NCBI GenBank assembly: GCA_938009905.1
Contig: CALLGK010000284.1
Coordinates: 1-62,866, forward strand
Direction: 5' to 3'
Length of the DNA stretch: 62,866 bases
From: an uncultured Acidimicrobiales bacterium
GTDB taxonomy: Bacteria > Actinomycetota > Acidimicrobiia > Acidimicrobiales > SZUA-35
Within the stretch, counting starts at the first letter, position 1. Every line of letters begins with the position of its first letter. The notes beneath the pieces are model-generated. The model made no database searches. It saw nothing but the letters and a program-made list of their open reading frames with translations, and was not told where the DNA came from. Below, in pieces: positions 1,588 through 57,624 of this stretch. Made by a program: the position numbers and the translations under genes.

Positions 1588-2082
1588 ATGCGCCCGGCAC
1601 TATCTCTCAAAGCGTTTGCTCTTGCGTTTGCGCTCGTGATTGCCGCGTGCGGCGGCACCACCACCGAGCAAGCCGCCGGCCCAAACATGGCCGACCTGTC
1701 CGGCGCGTTTGAGACCATGGACGGTGGTCAGCTCGAGTTTGGCTCGCTGGAAGGCCAAGACGTTGTGCTGTGGTTCTGGGCCCCCTGGTGACCCGTTTGA
1801 AACGCTGAATCCCCCACGGTCGTGGAGGCACAACAAACCTATGGTGACGACGTCACCTTCATCGGCGTTCCAAGCCTCGACGGTGTCGAGGCCATGGAGT
1901 CGTTCGTGAGCCGCAACAGCCTGCAAGGGCTGACGCACATTCCAGACGTCGACGGCGAGCTTTGGACCCGCTTCGGTGTGAGCGAGCACCGCACGTACGT
2001 GCTGATCAACGATGACGGCACATGGAGTCGCACCGGCTACGGCTCACTCGACGCCGACGTTGCCAACCTCATCGCCAGCTAA
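1588..2082 (+). CDS. TlpA/ResA-like thiol:disulfide oxidoreductase lipoprotein with two in-frame TGA codons at the CxxC positions (putative UxxU selenoprotein)
   Basis: ORFs 1555-1791 and 1822-2082 share one frame. They are separated only by TGA(1789-1791) CCC GTT TGA(1798-1800) plus 7 sense codons. Joined product: MRPALSLKAFALAFALVIAAC (lipobox)...GQDVVLWFWAPW-[TGA]-PV-[TGA]-NAESPTVVEAQQTYGDDVTFIGVPSLD...HRTYVLINDDG. This is the canonical redoxin WxxWCxxCxxExP layout followed by a full thioredoxin-fold C-terminal half. Confidence 0.7.
1812..1828 (+). promoter_or_regulatory. Candidate SECIS-like hairpin downstream of the two TGA codons
   Basis: CC-CCAC-[GGUC]-GUGG-(A)-GG gives 6 bp with one bulged A and an apical GGUC loop. 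The loop G/U lie about 29 nt after the first TGA and about 20 nt after the second. The stem is short, so this is only a candidate. Confidence 0.3.
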
Positions 2083-7217: not shown

Positions 7218-7676
7218 ATGACCGCACGACTTTGGACCAAAATTGCACTGGTGTACCTGGCGTTCCAGTCCGTTCAGCTTGGCCTGTGGGCGCTCCTCGC
7301 CCCCAAGTCGTTCTACGACGGATTTCCCGGATTTGGACGGGCCTGGATCTCGATCGACGGGCCGTACAACGAGCACATGGTCCGCGACTTTGGCGCACTG
7401 AACCTGGCGCTGTTCGTTGTGCTGGTCGGTGCCATCATCACCATGAGCCGCCAGATGATTACCACGGCTGCTATCGCCTCATTGGTCTGGGGCGTCCCGC
7501 ACGTGATCTACCACCTCGTCAACACCGACGGATACGAAGCGGGTGCCGATACGGCCCTCAGCGTTGGCGGTCTCATCTTCTTTGCGGTCGTGGCCAGCTC
7601 ACTTCTCTTTACGGCGGACCGCCTCGAGCACAACGAACTTGGGGGACGAGCCGACGACGTCGCAGTTGCCAAATAG
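7218..7676 (+). CDS. Hypothetical integral membrane protein
   Basis: ORF 7197-7676 (TTG), with ATG 7218 preferred. Four hydrophobic segments (IALVYLAFQSVQLGLWALL, LNLALFVVLVGAIITM, AAIASLVWGVPHVIY, LSVGGLIFFAVVASSLLF). No family recognised. Confidence 0.55.
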   Translation: MTARLWTKIALVYLAFQSVQLGLWALLAPKSFYDGFPGFGRAWISIDGPYNEHMVRDFGALNLALFVVLVGAIITMSRQMITTAAIASLVWGVPHVIYHLVNTDGYEAGADTALSVGGLIFFAVVASSLLFTADRLEHNELGGRADDVAVAK

Positions 7677-10252: not shown

Positions 10253-12052
10253 ATGACCAACGACGTGCCTGTCACCCTTCGTTCGAGCGACTGGTTCAAC
10301 AATCCGAACGATCCGGCCATGACCGCGCTCTACCTCGAGCGCTACATCAACTACGGCCTGACTCGCGAGGAGTTGCAATCGGGCAAGCCCATCATCGGTA
10401 TTGCCCAGACGGGGTCAGACCTCTCGCCCTGCAACCGACACCACCTGGATCTTGCGAATCGGGTGAGAGAGGGCATTCGAGAAGCGGGCGGCATTTGTTT
10501 TGAGTTTCCCGTGCATCCCATTCAAGAGACTGGCAAGCGGCCGACCGCGGCGCTCGACCGCAACCTCGCCTACCTCGGGCTCGTCGAGGTCCTGCAGGGC
10601 TATCCACTCGATGGGGTGGTGCTCACCGTTGGCTGCGACAAGACGACGCCGGCATGCCTGATGGCGGCGGCCACCGTGAACGTCCCAGCCATCGCATTGT
10701 CGGTCGGCCCCATGCTCAATGGCTGGCACCAAGGTGAACGAACGGGCTCTGGCACCATCGTGTGGAAGGCCAGAGAATTGCATGCGGCTGGCGAACTCGA
10801 CGACGCAGGCTTCGCCGACCTCGTTGCCACCTCGGTCACATCGACGGGTTACTGCTCGACCATGGGCACCGCGACAACGATGAACTCGTTGAGCGAGGCA
10901 CTCGGCATGCAGTTGCCGGGCTCGGCTGCTATCCCGGCCCCGTACCGCGAGCGGGCTCAGATGGCATACCGCACCGGCCTTCGCATCGTTGATCTTGTGA
11001 AGCAAGACGTGCGCCCGTCAGACGTGATGACCCGCGAAGCTTTTGAGAACGCCATCGTCGTGAACTCGGCCATCGGTGGCTCAACGAATGCGCCGATTCA
11101 CCTCAACGCCATCGCTCGCCACGTCGGCGTCGACCTCACCAACGACGATTGGCAAGACATCGGCCTCGACATCCCGATGATCGTGAACATGCAACCCACC
11201 GGCGAGTACCTCGGCGAGGACTACTTCCACGCCGGCGGTGTTCCCGTTGTGGTCGCTGAGCTGATGAAGAGCGGCCTTCTCCCCCACCCGGATGCCATGA
11301 CGGTCAGCGGCTCGACCATCGGCGAGAACTGCGACGGCGTCGAGAACGCCGACCCAAAGGTGATCAGGCCCGCAACCGATCCGATGATGGAACGAGCGGG
11401 ATTCGTCCACCTCTCTGGCAATCTCTTCGACTCAGCCATCATGAAGACAAGCGGTATCTCTGCCGAGTTTCGAGATCGCTACTTGTCAGACCCCGAGCAT
11501 CCGAACGCCTTTGTCGGGAGGGCGATCGTGTTTGATGGCCCCGAGGACTATCACGACCGCATCGACGACCCCACGCTCGCGATCGACGAGCACTGCATGC
11601 TCATTGTGCGCGGCACGGGCCCCATCGGGTACCCGGGCGGGGCTGAAGTGGTCAACATGCAACCGCCTGCAGCACTGCTGGTGCAGGGCGTGCACTCACT
11701 GCCGTGTATTGGTGACGGCAGGCAATCGGGCACCTCAGGTTCGCCGTCGATCTTGAATGCAGCACCGGAGGCTGCTGCTGGCGGAGGACTCGCACTCCTA
11801 CAAACCGGCGACCAGATCCGCATCGACCTCAACATCGGCACCGCAAACATGCTCGTTTCCGACGACGAGCTCGCCGAGCGAGCGGCCGCGCTCGAGGCAG
11901 CCGGCGGCTACGCCTACCCCGAAAGCCACACACCTTGGCAGGCGATTCAGCGAAGCATGGTGAGCCAGTTCGACGACGGCATGGTGCTCAAACCGGCGGT
12001 CGAGTTTCAAGACACCTCACGCGTGCACGGCACGCCCCGCCACAACCACTAG
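10253..12052 (+). CDS. IlvD/Edd family dehydratase (sugar-acid/dihydroxy-acid dehydratase)
   Basis: 599 aa with family hallmarks [13 protein letters not shown] and [18 protein letters not shown]. The N-terminus ([21 protein letters not shown]) resembles pentonate dehydratases more than IlvD proper (inference). Confidence 0.85.
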
Positions 12053-37610: not shown

Positions 37611-37674
37611 GTTTTGCGACCAGCTCGCAAGTAGCGACACTCGCTCGTAGGTTGAGTAGGTGCCCCGCCAACGG

Positions 37675-38679
37675 ATGTCTCGATACGTCGCCCTACTCGT
37701 GGCGCTTGCCATGATCGCTACCGCCTGTGGCGGCGACGACGGTCAAACGACAGAGTTGGGCGCGGCCGAGACCGACATCGTGGTGGTCACGACCGTCGCC
37801 CCCATCACGTCGATTGCGGCGAGCATCATCGGCGATCGGGCCACGATCAGAGGCATCGTGCCCGAGGGGACGAACTCGCATACCTTTGAGCCATCCCCTT
37901 CAGCCGCCGAGGTCCTCAGCGAAGCTGACGTGATCTTCATCAACGGGTTGCAACTCGAAGAACCAACGAAACGCCTAGCGCTGACCAACATGCAGGACGG
38001 CACGCCGCTGATCGAACTTGGCGACCTCACCATCTCGCCAGACCAATACAAATACGACTTTTCGTTTCCCGAAGACGATGGCAAGCCGAATCCGCATCTA
38101 TGGACCGACCCGACACTGGTGACGGTGTACGCCGACCTCATTCTCGAAACGATGATCGAGGTCGACCCTGACGGTGCCGAGACCTACACCGCGAACCATG
38201 CCGACTTCGTGAGCCTCGTCGAGCGATTCGATGTGGCGGTTGGGGAATCTCTCGACACGGTGCCGGCTGAGAATCGCAAGCTGGTCACCTACCACGATGC
38301 CTACGCCTACTTCGCTGACACCTACGGCTGGACCGTCGTCGGCGCCATTCAGCCGGCTGACTTCGGTGAGCCAACACCGGCCGAGGTTGTTCAACTGATC
38401 GAACAGGTCGAGGCAGAGGGTGTGCCCGCAATCTTTGGATCTGAGGTGTTCCCATCTCCGGTCCTCGAACAGATCGCCAACGAAACCGGTGCGACCTACG
38501 TCGACGATCTCCGCGACGACGACCTGCCAGGCGAGACGGGCGACCTTGAGCACTCGTGGCTTGGGTTGATGCGATTCAACTTCATCACGATGACCGAATC
38601 GCTGGGCGGCGACCCATCGGCGCTTGAGGCGTTTGAACTTGTCGAGGTCGACACCAGCACGGCGGAGTTTCCTCAGTGA
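37675..38679 (+). CDS. Metal (Zn/Mn-type) ABC transporter substrate-binding lipoprotein (TroA/ZnuA cluster)
   Basis: Lipobox LAMIATAC-GG, with NSHTFEPSP, NPHLWTDP and YHDAYAYF. No His-rich loop. ATG 37675 (alternative GTG 37660). Confidence 0.85.
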   Translation: MSRYVALLVALAMIATACGGDDGQTTELGAAETDIVVVTTVAPITSIAASIIGDRATIRGIVPEGTNSHTFEPSPSAAEVLSEADVIFINGLQLEEPTKRLALTNMQDGTPLIELGDLTISPDQYKYDFSFPEDDGKPNPHLWTDPTLVTVYADLILETMIEVDPDGAETYTANHADFVSLVERFDVAVGESLDTVPAENRKLVTYHDAYAYFADTYGWTVVGAIQPADFGEPTPAEVVQLIEQVEAEGVPAIFGSEVFPSPVLEQIANETGATYVDDLRDDDLPGETGDLEHSWLGLMRFNFITMTESLGGDPSALEAFELVEVDTSTAEFPQ

Positions 38680-39503
38680 CAAACCCCAACGAGGTTCCGC
38701 CCACAATCGATCTGCGAACCGGTCGTTCACCAGAGCCGACCGAAACCATGATCGAGGCGAGCGGCCTCTCGGTTGACTACGGAGGCCCGGAGGTTTTGAC
38801 CAACGTCGACCTCACGGTCGAACAGGGCGACCTCATTGGCATCGTTGGCCCGTCGGGGTCAGGTAAGTCGACGCTGCTTCGAGCATTGCTCGGCACGGTG
38901 TCACCCAGCCGGGGTGCGGTGACCCGCAAGCCCGGCCTGTCCGTCGGCCTTGTCCCCCAGGTCGAGAACATCGACTGGGATTTTCCCGTCACCGTCACCG
39001 AGTGCGTTGGCATGGCACGAGCCAAGGGTTGGCGCACGCCGTGGATCAACAAGTCCGAGCGCAACGCCATCATGACGGTGCTCGAACGGCTCGGGCTCGA
39101 TGGTCTCGAGCGGCGCCACATTCGCGATCTCTCTGGCGGCCAGCAGCAGCGAATGTTCCTGGCCAGGGCGCTTTACACCGATGCTGCAGTGATCTTCCTC
39201 GACGAACCGACATCTGGTCTCGATGTGAAAACACGCCACGACGTACTGCACCTCCTCGACGATCTCAACGGCGATGGCCTCACCGTGGTGCTCACCACCC
39301 ACGATCTCAACGGCATCGCCGCTCATCTGCCGACCATCGTGTGCTTGAACCAGCACGTGATCGGAGCTGGCAGTCCGGAGGAAGTGCTTGTCCCCCACGT
39401 GCTCGAACAGACCTACGGATCGCCGATGGAAATCCTGGAACACGGGGGTATGCGGGTCGTTGTTGATGCGCCTCGAAGCCCCAAGGCGGTCGAGTCCGCA
39501 TGA
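38676..39503 (+). CDS. Metal ABC transporter ATP-binding protein
   Basis: Walker A GPSGSGKST, signature LSGGQQQR, and Walker B VIFLDEPTSGLD. GTGA overlap with the upstream gene. Confidence 0.9.
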   Translation: MTNPNEVPPTIDLRTGRSPEPTETMIEASGLSVDYGGPEVLTNVDLTVEQGDLIGIVGPSGSGKSTLLRALLGTVSPSRGAVTRKPGLSVGLVPQVENIDWDFPVTVTECVGMARAKGWRTPWINKSERNAIMTVLERLGLDGLERRHIRDLSGGQQQRMFLARALYTDAAVIFLDEPTSGLDVKTRHDVLHLLDDLNGDGLTVVLTTHDLNGIAAHLPTIVCLNQHVIGAGSPEEVLVPHVLEQTYGSPMEILEHGGMRVVVDAPRSPKAVESA

Positions 39504-40360
39504 TGGTTGCGATCACGTGGGCCGAGATCATCAAGCCGTTCGAGTTTGAGTTCTTCCGCAACGGCCTCGTGGTCGCCACAATCGCCGGAGCGCTGTGCGG
39601 CGTGATCGGCTGCTACGTCGTGCTCCGCAACATGAGCTACATCGGCCACGGGCTGGCTCACGCCGTGTTTGGTGGCTACGCAGCCGCTGGGCTGCTCGGC
39701 ATCAACCTTTTTCTGGGCGCCGGCATCTGGGGCGTGATTACTGCGCTGGGCGTGACTTCAATCGTGCGTCGGCGACCGATTGGGTCTGATGCGGCCATTG
39801 GTGTCATCACCACCGCGTCGTTTGCGCTGGGCCTCGCTCTTGTGCAGCTCTACGGATCGCCGGGCCGCAGCGCAGATGCGTTGCTGTTTGGCAACGTGCT
39901 CGGCGTCAACAGAACAGACGTGTGGCTGATCGTCGTGGTTGCTGTCGTGTCGCTTGCCGCGATCCTCACCTTCTACCGCCCACTGTTGTTCACCACATTC
40001 GACGCCGAGGTGGCCGAGGCCACCGGCGTGAAGACTGCATTGGTTGACGGCGTGCTGATGGTGCTGCTGTCGGCGACGGTCCTCGCCACGATGAGCGTCA
40101 TGGGTGTCACCTTGATCGCCGCAAACCTCGTCATCCCCGCGGTGGTGGCCCGCATGCTCACCGACAGCTTCGGTCACATGCTCGGCTTTGCCGCGGTCAT
40201 CGGCGCCATCTGTGGGTTTGGCGGCATGAATGCCAGCTACCACCTCGATGTGGCCTCTGGCCCGACCATCGTGCTCGTCGCCTCCGTGTTCTTCATTGCT
40301 GCATTCGCCACGGGCGGACGGCTTCGGCAACGCGCCGGCGCTGTTGGGCACGCTCACTAG
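39500..40360 (+). CDS. Metal ABC transporter permease (ABC-3 family)
   Basis: 286 aa with about 8 TM segments. ATGA overlap with the ATPase gene. Confidence 0.9.
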   Translation: MMVAITWAEIIKPFEFEFFRNGLVVATIAGALCGVIGCYVVLRNMSYIGHGLAHAVFGGYAAAGLLGINLFLGAGIWGVITALGVTSIVRRRPIGSDAAIGVITTASFALGLALVQLYGSPGRSADALLFGNVLGVNRTDVWLIVVVAVVSLAAILTFYRPLLFTTFDAEVAEATGVKTALVDGVLMVLLSATVLATMSVMGVTLIAANLVIPAVVARMLTDSFGHMLGFAAVIGAICGFGGMNASYHLDVASGPTIVLVASVFFIAAFATGGRLRQRAGAVGHAH

Positions 40361-55927: not shown

Positions 55928-56827
55928 TCACCAGGGCGTCGGTTCTCCCATACGAATGATGGTGGTCAGCATGTCGTTCAGGGGAACGGCTACGCCGTGA
56001 CGAGCAGCGAGGCGACCGACAACGCCGTTGCGGGCCTCCCACTCGGTGGCAACGCCATTGATGCGATCGACAACGATCGAACTCATGTGCCCGCTGGCTT
56101 GCTTCGCCAAGCCGTCCATGATGCGAACTGGCAGATCGGTTGAGAGGCGAGCACCACACGCCCGACCCACCTCGGCCACCTCTTCCATCAGACGAATCGC
56201 AAGGTCTCGTGCGTCGTCGTCAGCAAAGACACGGTTGTCTGTGCGAGCCAGGGTGCAGAGTCCGCCGGATGCAGCATTCATCATCAGCTTGATCCACGCA
56301 TCGGTCGTCCAGTCGTCCGAGAGCTTCACGTTGACAAACGACGAGGCAAGCAGATCGGCCACGGCCTGCCCCGCTGGCTCGTCGGGAATCGTGATGCGGG
56401 CTCGACCGGTGACCGCAATGTCGCCGGGCGCATCTCGCCGGGCTGGCAGAGCGACCACTGCTGGCACGAGCGCCGTCTCGGGTGGAACCAGCGGGCGAAG
56501 TCGATCAATGTGCTCGATGCCGTTCTGAAGAATCACCAGCGTTGTCGCGGGACCTACGAGGGCGGTCAACCACTCGGCTGCATCGGCGGTTTGGTGGGCC
56601 TTGACGGCGAGAAAGGCAACGTCAACCGGGCCTCGACTTCCTACGTCGGCCGGCGAGGCAATACATGCCGCGCCGACGTCGGCCGCGACGACGCCCTCAA
56701 GATGATTGACCCGAAGCTGCGTGAACGGGGTTCGAACCGCCAGGAGTGGTGGACTGCCCGCATCGATGAGAGCGCCGGCGACCGTGCCGCCGATGGCTCC
56801 TGGCCCAATAACTGCCGTGCTGGTCAC
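55928..56827 (-). CDS. 2-dehydropantoate 2-reductase (ApbA/PanE) family oxidoreductase
   Basis: [14 protein letters not shown] Rossmann motif, 299 aa. GTGA overlap with the udp stop. Confidence 0.8.
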
Positions 56828-57624
56828 GAGTCGGCCGTCATCCGGCGGGCCGCCTCGACCACGACGGCGATTGAGTTCTCTTCAACCAGAGCCGCCGATT
56901 CGGGTGACGGCAACTCGGCATCGGCCCGGTTCATCAACACGCCGGCCACACAGCCAGCCCGCCAGCCGTTGGCAGCACACATCGTGAGCAGCGTGGCCGA
57001 CTCCATCTCGTAGTTGAGAACGTGCAGTCGCTGCCACTCTTCGAGCGACCCTCGGAACCGCTCGACGACAGTGCCGGCCACGGTGTCGTAGCGCTCCTGG
57101 CCGGGGTAGAAGGTGTCCGACGAGGCGGTGATGCCAACGTGATGCGTGAGGCCAAGTGCTGTGGCGGCATCGACGAGCGTGCGGGTGCACTCGAACGAAC
57201 TGGCCGCCGGATACTCGAGCGGGGCGAAGTGCTGACTGGCACCGTCGAGGCGCACCGACGCCTGGGTCACGATCAGATGACCCGATTCGATACCGGGCTG
57301 AATGCCACCGGTGGTGCCCACCCGCAGAAATGTTCGGATACCAAGCTGAGCCAGTTCTTCGACGGCGATCGACGTCGACGGACCACCGATGCCGGTCGAA
57401 CACACCACCACAGGGGTGCCGTCGAGCCGTCCAAGGGCAGTGGTGAACTCTCGCTCGGCGGCGATGACGGAGGCGCCGGGATCGAGACGTTCGGCGATGC
57501 GCTCGACGCGGCCCGGATCACCAGGCACGATGGCCAGTGTTGCCCCTTCGAGTTGGCGTTTGACAAGGCCGAGATGGAAGACGTCACTCACACGCGGCAC
57601 GGTAGTTCCCGCAGTGCTCATCAC
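56824..57624 (-). CDS. udp: Uridine phosphorylase
   Basis: Long collinear identity with E. coli Udp as I recall it: [82 protein letters not shown] and [14 protein letters not shown]. Confidence 0.9.

Follow-up and report, generated by a model that had tools for sequence, protein, structure and literature searches.

Extracytoplasmic TlpA-like oxidoreductases of Actinobacteria are represented by Mycobacterium tuberculosis DsbF (Rv1677, structure 3ios), itself a lipoprotein, and DsbE/MPT53 (Rv2878c, structure 1lu4), both of which carry a CxxC active site and a cis-proline. Thioredoxin-fold proteins in which selenocysteine (Sec, U) takes the place of both cysteines, giving UxxU, have also been described. 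SelL is reported to be a diselenide-forming UxxU protein of fish, invertebrates and marine bacteria (PMC2397514); the Global Ocean Sampling (GOS) survey contains UxxU sequences in its 'Prx-like 2' family (PMC2398784), and UxxU is listed for a 'Prx-like thiol:disulfide oxidoreductase (PF00578)', a mercuric-reductase-like metal-binding protein and an FmdB-family protein (PMC9312934, PMC13188914). Here we analysed contig CALLGK010000284.1 of an uncultured Acidimicrobiales bacterium (the window, that is, the whole stretch of 62,866 nucleotides) and report that positions 1588-2082 very probably constitute a genuine selenoprotein gene with two Sec codons, encoding a UxxU redoxin related to DsbE and DsbF.

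Reading of the sequence revealed one frame from an ATG at 1588 to a TAA at 2080-2082, in which the sole interruptions are TGA codons at 1789-1791 (UGA1) and 1798-1800 (UGA2). An alternative in-frame ATG at 1555 would lengthen the N-terminus by 11 residues. The deduced translation is MRPALSLKAFALAFALVIAAC GG...GQDVVLWFWAPW-U-P-V-U-NAESPTVVEAQQ...EHRTYVLINDDGTW...LIAS, and the features of the gene are as follows.

1588-2082, plus strand: candidate selenoprotein gene, complete, for a 164-residue lipoprotein precursor with Sec68 and Sec71 (direct frame reading, Pfam, PDB match and orthologues built alike)
1588-1650, plus strand: signal peptide and lipobox V-I-A-A-C, with the predicted lipidated Cys21 encoded by TGC at 1648-1650 (by inspection)
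1771-1788, plus strand: WFWAPW strand-loop ahead of the active site, invariant across the family
1789-1791, plus strand: UGA1, putative Sec68, in place of the nucleophilic N-terminal Cys of CxxC and aligned to the first Cys of DsbF/DsbE
1798-1800, plus strand: UGA2, putative Sec71, in place of the resolving C-terminal Cys of CxxC and aligned to the second Cys of DsbF/DsbE
1811-1828 (loop 1818-1821), plus strand: hairpin CCCCCAC-GGUC-GUGGAGG of the selenocysteine insertion sequence (SECIS) type, within the coding sequence (comparison and folding)
1990-1992, plus strand: Arg135 (CGC), in the cis-proline column of the thioredoxin fold, within ..EHRTYV.. and a signature of the UxxU clade
2080-2082, plus strand: true stop TAA; orthologues share the C-terminal end column

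The initial annotation of this stretch, made from the sequence alone, had described the two TGAs at 1789 and 1798 as lying in one frame with about 93 intact codons downstream, and direct reading counted 93 open codons past the second TGA. The lipoprotein signal VIAAC that it had noted is present: the pattern [LVI][ASTVI][GAS]C is matched by MRPALSLKAFALAFALVIAAC on inspection, and a hydrophobic stretch with an equivalent A/S-C-G-G is kept in the orthologues despite N-termini that are otherwise divergent.

With U written as C, the protein scored above the Pfam cut-offs for AhpC-TSA (48.9 bits, cut-off 26), Redoxin (42.2, cut-off 26.6), Thioredoxin_8 (35.1, cut-off 27) and Thioredoxin; none of the NCBIfam models reached its cut-off with this U-to-C protein. 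DsbF and DsbE were the best sequence matches, residues 35-145 aligning with 3ios at E 5e-26 and with 1lu4 at E 3e-23, and they share with the window protein the WFWAPWCPxC context, the domain length and export. In this alignment both TGAs fall exactly on the cysteines of WCPTC/WCPFC, in agreement with the earlier placement of the TGAs on the catalytic pair, a point it had also marked for checking. The W-C-x-x-C redox motif of TlpA/ResA/DsbE-like proteins is thus present as W-U-P-V-U, and the window protein differs from DsbF and DsbE, which have CxxC and cis-proline, in having UxxU and Arg. By these comparisons the product is a redoxin of the TlpA/DsbE/DsbF type, predicted to be an exported lipoprotein.

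The homologues recovered by a protein search comprised full-length CxxC proteins, at about 45% identity, and eleven proteins of 90-115 residues, whose N-termini are divergent and which share the end ...GSLEGQDVVLWFWAPW; this common end indicates that gene calls halt at one column. Read-through of the DNA behind the split matches gave UxxC genes (TGA CCG AGC TGT, TGA CCC ACG TGC and similar) and UxxU genes, the latter being two distinct genes with TGA CCG TTT TGA, spread over five assemblies. When the C-terminal 93 residues were searched exhaustively with HMMER, the relatives above about 48% identity all turned out to be fragments of 62-86 residues that begin at a GTG inside the hairpin (MEVQQ...), while full-length CxxC proteins appeared only at 46% identity or less. 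The comparison of the joined protein that the initial annotation had proposed returned, as closest database relatives, gene calls split at the same column. The public calls P0047-P0057, P0001 and P0058-P0065 are split in this way, into N-terminal fragments ending in ...WFWAPW and C-terminal fragments that begin at the GTG, and the fragments are labelled 'hypothetical protein' where named (P0001, P0052).

The pattern WFWAPW-TGA-NNNNNN-TG[A/C/T], scanned with one genome per GTDB species, detected at least 118 family loci in the species representatives. Among the matches listed, 106 were UxxC and 12 were UxxU, the latter amounting to about 10% of the family loci. Nearly all loci belong to Acidimicrobiia (Acidimicrobiales, Ca. 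Poriferisodalis, Aldehydirespiratoraceae, Ilumatobacter, Microthrix) and a few to Nitriliruptoria-type Actinomycetota. The first position is TGA in all 130 collected family loci, as the search pattern itself demanded. The second position, where the pattern was open to A, C or T, is TGA in 13 of the 13 Arg-clade members and TGY in the 106 other loci listed. A neighbour-joining tree of 120 distinct domains placed the 13 UxxU sequences, that of the window included, in one exclusive clade. A metagenome scan for W-U-P-x-U yielded 18 contigs with about ten further distinct members, bringing the clade to 23 distinct sequences that are 36-77% identical past the second TGA. The same two columns thus recur as TGA in 22 other distinct sequences, which places the double-TGA pattern far beyond chance. 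We infer that the ancestral family was probably UxxC and that a single Cys-to-Sec change at the second position would have founded the UxxU clade, both TGAs being kept since.

All complete copies of the UxxU clade have an open frame of 92-94 codons after UGA2 and the same C-terminus, whereas about 6% would be expected per random frame at this G+C content. The ratio of nonsynonymous to synonymous substitution rates (dN/dS; NG86) within the clade is 0.42 at the median and 0.64 at most, dS being saturated, and the Pro codon between the two TGAs varies (CCC, CCG, CCA) while both TGAs are unchanged. UxxU and UxxC copies, or two UxxU copies, occur within one genome (L036/L079, L030/L063, L059/L078), and this coexistence rules out decay together with read error and argues that TGA is selected at both positions. 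As far as comparison of sequences can tell, both UGAs are shown to be under selection.

These data bear on two trivial explanations. Were the locus a pseudogene, two nonsense mutations would have hit it, too recently for the downstream frame to have closed, or the frame would have stayed open by chance; the splitting of the gene by gene callers and the existence of P0074, a relative whose active-site segment is deleted, are in keeping with this, while the retention of both TGAs in all 23 distinct members down to 36% identity, and of the frame, the C-terminus, the fold residues and a covarying hairpin in the complete copies, makes decay extremely unlikely. The decay of orthologues that the initial annotation had named as a possible sign against its proposal was not seen among the 23 clade sequences. 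An error of sequencing or assembly, turning TGC or TGT into TGA at one or both sites, could be the source of an isolated U-S-T-U in another subfamily, whereas the double TGA of the clade is found in independent assemblies of numerous samples, drawn from ENA, JGI, Logan, GTDB metagenome-assembled genomes (MAGs) and complete chromosomes, so that error has a practically negligible probability here.

P0074 (260 aa) is related to the UxxU clade and has an in-frame deletion of the WFWAPW-U-x-x-U-SECIS segment with ...QQRTYILINDDG... retained; this copy may have decayed, or its assembly may be at fault. The isolated U-S-T-U (TGA AGC ACC TGA) lies elsewhere in the tree, in L067 (CAVYTE010000016.1, minus strand, motif at oriented position 7607), whose subfamily has retained the cis-proline and forms the other type of hairpin. 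Either UxxU may have arisen independently a second time there, or a base may be wrong in this one MAG.

A global change of the genetic code was also considered and rejected. TGA ends 15 of the 40 Pfam-supported genes of the window, the G+C content of which is 62%, and on the count of TGA-ended genes the code is the standard one. The operon of ZnuA, an ABC ATPase and an ABC-3 permease at window positions 37660-40360 contains GTGA and ATGA start-stop overlaps, so TGA acts as a stop in this genome; the initial annotation had argued the same from overlaps that are among these 15 genes. A read-through scan of the window's intergenic gaps found no second selenoprotein. One open reading frame (ORF) on the minus strand at about 56300-56830 ends in TGA and resembles a nucleoside phosphorylase; it was overlooked by GC3-based gene calling and is not a selenoprotein.

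The hairpin at 1811-1828 begins 10 nt past the second TGA, a distance near the spacing in E. coli fdhF, and its loop lies 26 nt from UGA1 and 17 nt from UGA2. The upper stem has 4 bp, followed by a mismatch and 2 bp, and is closed by a GGUC loop. A published bacterial SECIS model requires an apical loop of 3-9 nt with G in its first two positions, 4 or more bp in the upper stem, a UGA-loop distance of 16-37 nt and a minimum free energy (MFE) of -7.5 kcal/mol or lower (PMC13188914); the loop, the stem and both UGA spacings are within this model.

Of 123 distinct family sequences, 85 have a hairpin at this position; its GGUC loop never varies, and its stem occurs in ten versions, including CUGC/GCAG, CCAC/GUGG, GUGC/GCAU, CCUC/GAGG and CGGC/GCCG. 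The UxxU clade alone has CCAC/GUGG, CUAC/GUAG or CGAC/GUCG. Covariation was tested on an ungapped alignment of 88 sequences with 500 shuffles; sequences were admitted only with at least three of the four upper pairs, a rule that inflates the percentage paired, to the detriment of the argument, and not the diversity of pair types, and on this alignment the score was 0.400 against 0.131 +/- 0.013 for the shuffled sets, none of the 500 reaching it. Sliding the partners by 1-3 columns lowered the score to 0.146 or less, and 85 cells were changed on both sides. Among 87 distinct sequences neither the GGUC loop nor the closing C-G varies, while pair 27-36 is UA in 60 sequences, CG in 23, GC in 4 and unpaired in 0, and pair 28-35 is GC in 63, AU in 15, UA in 6 and GU in 2. 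The encoded residues shift along with the stem (P-A-V-A-E, P-T-V-V-E, P-S-V-E-E), and since the amino acids vary with the stem the constraint is on the RNA.

The 32 remaining sequences, from other subfamilies, have a different, two-hairpin arrangement. The GGUC hairpin is missing from its usual offset in about a quarter of the family, in Nitriliruptorales, Euzebyaceae, Egibacteraceae and unclassified Actinomycetota bins (L015, L025, L027, L029, L043, L046, L055, L081, L090 and L099 among the loci); these loci have two consecutive hairpins, the second being, for example, GUCGCGC-AGGUG-GCGCGGC, which is probably an alternative SECIS type.

Several results weigh against a two-Sec gene. The isolated hairpin has a borderline MFE of -6.6 to -7.0 kcal/mol against the model limit of -7.5; the fold of 1789-1840 reaches -7.9 kcal/mol with only the four-pair upper stem surviving, and folds of 75 and 141 nt did not surpass shuffles in MFE. 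Rfam scans at gathering and relaxed thresholds matched no SECIS or other family; bacterial SECIS elements are thinly represented in Rfam. The SECIS that the initial annotation had suggested seeking near the motif thus went unmatched in Rfam and was recovered as the covarying GGUC hairpin, which is convincing on account of the comparison across the family and not of its folding energy. Of the decoding machinery, ARAGORN detected no tRNA-Sec in the 62.9-kb window or in 149 related loci, the Pfam annotation of about 50 window genes contained no selA, selB or selD, and the 1.2 Mb of related loci, searched by tblastn for the E. coli proteins SelA, SelB and SelD, yielded three weak SelB matches only. 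A search for conserved neighbours of the UxxU clade returned only antisense artefacts and so gave no functional hint. Efficient insertion of two Sec residues three codons apart from one SECIS lacks precedent in this redoxin family. The three weak SelB-like matches, taken as candidates for SelB, proved to be TypA/BipA.

The spacing and strength of the hairpin also bear on the possibility that Sec is inserted efficiently at UGA1 alone, with UGA2 mostly terminating translation or being read by a near-cognate tRNA for Cys or Trp, so that the mature full-length protein would effectively be UxxC or UxxW at low yield. It would fit such a case that UGA1 is the universal Sec site of the family, that two SelB-dependent events three codons apart with one hairpin are kinetically demanding, and that the hairpin is thermodynamically weak. 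The second TGA is nevertheless kept throughout the clade, although one transversion would restore TGC or TGT, the adjacent Pro codon wobbles and dS is saturated; UGA2 lies inside the range of the SECIS model, and the fdhF-like spacing tells in the same direction. Shchedrina and colleagues are moreover said to have described, in 2007, bacterial SelL-like genes with a single in-ORF SECIS placed to serve both UGAs, a diselenide having reportedly been demonstrated for SelL. Decoding of UGA1 alone is for these reasons improbable.

The missing selA and selD, in the window as in the related loci, would also suit SECIS-dependent recoding with Cys in place of Sec, by a SelB-like factor and a tRNA-Cys with UCA anticodon and with no selenium involved; Cys-recoding systems have reportedly been described bioinformatically by Mukai and colleagues. 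No evidence of such a system was found in Acidimicrobiia, however, and within the same class every complete Actinomarinales genome is reported to carry the standard selA, selB, selC and selD (bioRxiv 10.64898/2026.04.03.716425). A related UxxC sequence (...WFWAPYUTTC) also stands among the GOS selenoproteins, and recoding with Cys is very unlikely on these grounds. By the class-level precedent, together with the family-wide UGA and SECIS signature, the organism of the window may be presumed capable of Sec insertion. Double Sec recoding, which the initial annotation had put forward as the best explanation, is supported by the conservation of the clade, the intact frames and the covarying hairpin.

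The UxxC redoxins of Acidimicrobiia, which form the sister groups of the clade, have the same lipoprotein architecture, UGA1 and a GGUC-loop SECIS at the same offset, and differ in having one Sec, in usually keeping the cis-proline and, for some, in lying in a cluster of MerR, P-type ATPase and HMA-cupin genes. These sister groups are probably the 'Redoxin family protein PF08534 UxxC', the 'Thiol-disulfide isomerase-like cd02966 UxxC' or the 'Prx-like' groups of PMC13188914 and PMC2398784. The read JCVI_READ_1091141091063 (...VVLWFWAPYUTTC), filed under GOS Prx-like 2, is a UxxC member of the window family, so that the UxxC family had already been encountered. In the portion of the GOS supplement searched, the exact UxxU strings of the clade were absent.

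Membership of the window protein in SelL or GOS Prx-like 2 was considered and rejected. Both resemble it in the thioredoxin fold and in having UxxU for CxxC, and both window UGAs are within reach of one SECIS. The UxxU members of GOS Prx-like 2, however, read ..HYFATQG-U-A-G-U.. or ..WE(N/T)-U-G-G-U.. and are barely recognised by Pfam, so that the motif context is different, and BLASTP of the window protein against a GOS UxxU member gave E 16, that is, no detectable similarity, the comparison being with GOS sequences and not with eukaryotic SelL. Since no homology is detectable, UxxU appears to have arisen independently in the DsbE/DsbF lineage. SelL, cited in the initial annotation as a precedent for UxxU, accordingly holds as an analogue and not as a relative. 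The annotation's picture of a rare diselenide oxidoreductase needs correction in two respects: UxxU is a rare kind, but the protein is not a one-off, belonging to a conserved clade, and UxxU was already listed for several bacterial families, as cited above. The kind of protein, a thioredoxin-fold UxxU selenoprotein with an in-ORF SECIS, is already known, and the clade of the window would be an independent origin of it within the DsbE/DsbF lineage.

The second distinguishing mark of the clade is the loss of the cis-proline. At the column of Arg135, DsbF (..TQQPAY..) and DsbE (..PWQPAF..) have Pro, so that the conserved cis-proline loop of TlpA/ResA/DsbE-like redoxins is not kept in the window protein. 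Among the matches listed, the column is Arg in 13 of 13 sequences of the UxxU clade and Pro in 93 of the 106 UxxC sequences; in the enlarged clade it is Arg in 22 of 23, with His in one (L142). His at this column was also observed in P0071, P0078 and P0090, Pro being ancestral.

Peroxiredoxins, including Sec forms with TxxU (PF00578), offer a further comparison: AhpC-TSA is the best Pfam match, and Sec71 and Arg135 would correspond to the peroxidatic Cys and the catalytic Arg. Alignment by hhalign of the clade profile with human PRDX2 matched Sec71 with Cys51, the peroxidatic residue, and Arg135 with Arg127, the catalytic one (probability 11%, E 0.0027). This placement agrees with correspondences of CxxC with TxxC and of cis-Pro with Arg between thioredoxin-like proteins and peroxiredoxins, which are said to have been drawn by Fomenko and Gladyshev in 2003 and by Copley and colleagues in 2004. 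The peroxiredoxin motif PxxxTxxC is not present in the window protein, Thr being replaced by Sec68 or Pro69 and Pro being out of register; the alignment is weak, and the DsbE/F-type redoxins are by far the closest relatives.

In the mechanism that we propose, the one in-frame hairpin with its GGUC loop would recruit SelB and Sec-tRNA(Sec) and serve UGA1 first and then UGA2 three codons on. The product would be exported, lipidated and anchored in the membrane on the extracytoplasmic side with Sec for both active-site cysteines, and the two Sec residues, at the N-terminus of helix 1, would cycle between diselenide and selenolates. Sec71 could react with peroxide, or the selenols with O2, and Sec68 would resolve the product to the diselenide, which would then oxidise thiols or be re-reduced. 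Work attributed to Besse and colleagues in 1997 and to Beld, Woycechowsky and Hilvert in 2007-2010 reportedly assigned diselenides very low redox potentials, with fast re-oxidation of their selenols by O2 or peroxide. The role that we tentatively and speculatively prefer is that of a surface catalyst facing oxidants, as a peroxidase or as an O2-driven thiol oxidase, because the second Sec and the Arg map onto peroxiredoxin catalytic residues and because of this diselenide chemistry. A reductase fed by CcdA/DsbD is possible, and a metal- or metalloid-binding role would be somewhat unlikely. Two points count against this functional proposal: it leans on the weak hhalign match, and the cis-Pro column is occupied in CxxC relatives by Ser (the QSSF group), Asp (P0042) or His. 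Loss of Pro is consequently not unique to the UxxU clade, while the Arg is.

Elsewhere in the family, UxxC paralogues lie directly downstream of a gene for an HMA-domain heavy-metal P-type ATPase and an HMA/cupin gene (L001 7348-10603, L005 6730-10588, L011 6257-9745, L012 7094-10582), and a MerR regulator precedes this metal-gene cluster in L001 and L005; the arrangement suggests a link of that UxxC subgroup to copper or heavy metal. A typA/bipA GTPase gene was found near the redoxin selenoprotein gene in the alternative-hairpin subfamily (L044 3074-5287; L094 and L101, minus strand). In the window itself, the closest relatives of an IlvD/Edd-family dehydratase at 10253-12052 place the stretch in Acidimicrobiales; the enzyme is 84-90% identical to proteins of marine Acidimicrobiales MAG and TARA data and 80% identical to that of Ca. 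Poriferisodalis, and it is 76-78% identical to proteins of Stappia/Roseibium (Alphaproteobacteria), which is unusually high across phyla and hints that the gene may have been laterally transferred. The contigs carrying this dehydratase at 84-88% identity showed no synteny with the window and no redoxin.

Natural proteins with two adjacent Sec residues capable of forming a diselenide are, to our knowledge, very few, namely SelL, a few families predicted in bacteria and perhaps SelP. The present family would add a well-populated and evolutionarily clean case, a single switch from UxxC to UxxU in a family that includes the structurally solved DsbE and DsbF, retained in many Acidimicrobiia from the sea and from sponges and often beside UxxC paralogues. 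Because public gene calls split these genes into two 'hypothetical proteins', annotation pipelines overlook the whole family. The clade makes accessible the questions of what a second Sec gains over a selenenylsulfide, of how one bacterial SECIS may serve two UGAs three codons apart, and of whether the change from cis-Pro to Arg shifts the chemistry toward peroxide or O2. It is possible, if doubtful, that the UxxU/Arg clade is an independently evolved diselenide enzyme of the cell surface, derived from a DsbE/F-type lipoprotein by conversion of the resolving Cys to Sec and of the cis-Pro to a peroxiredoxin-like Arg, and acting as a self-contained extracytoplasmic selenoperoxidase or as an O2-driven thiol oxidase without a DsbB/VKOR-type partner. 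If this were true, the bacterial cell envelope would have its first natural diselenide catalyst, and the transition from thioredoxin to peroxiredoxin would have a live example.

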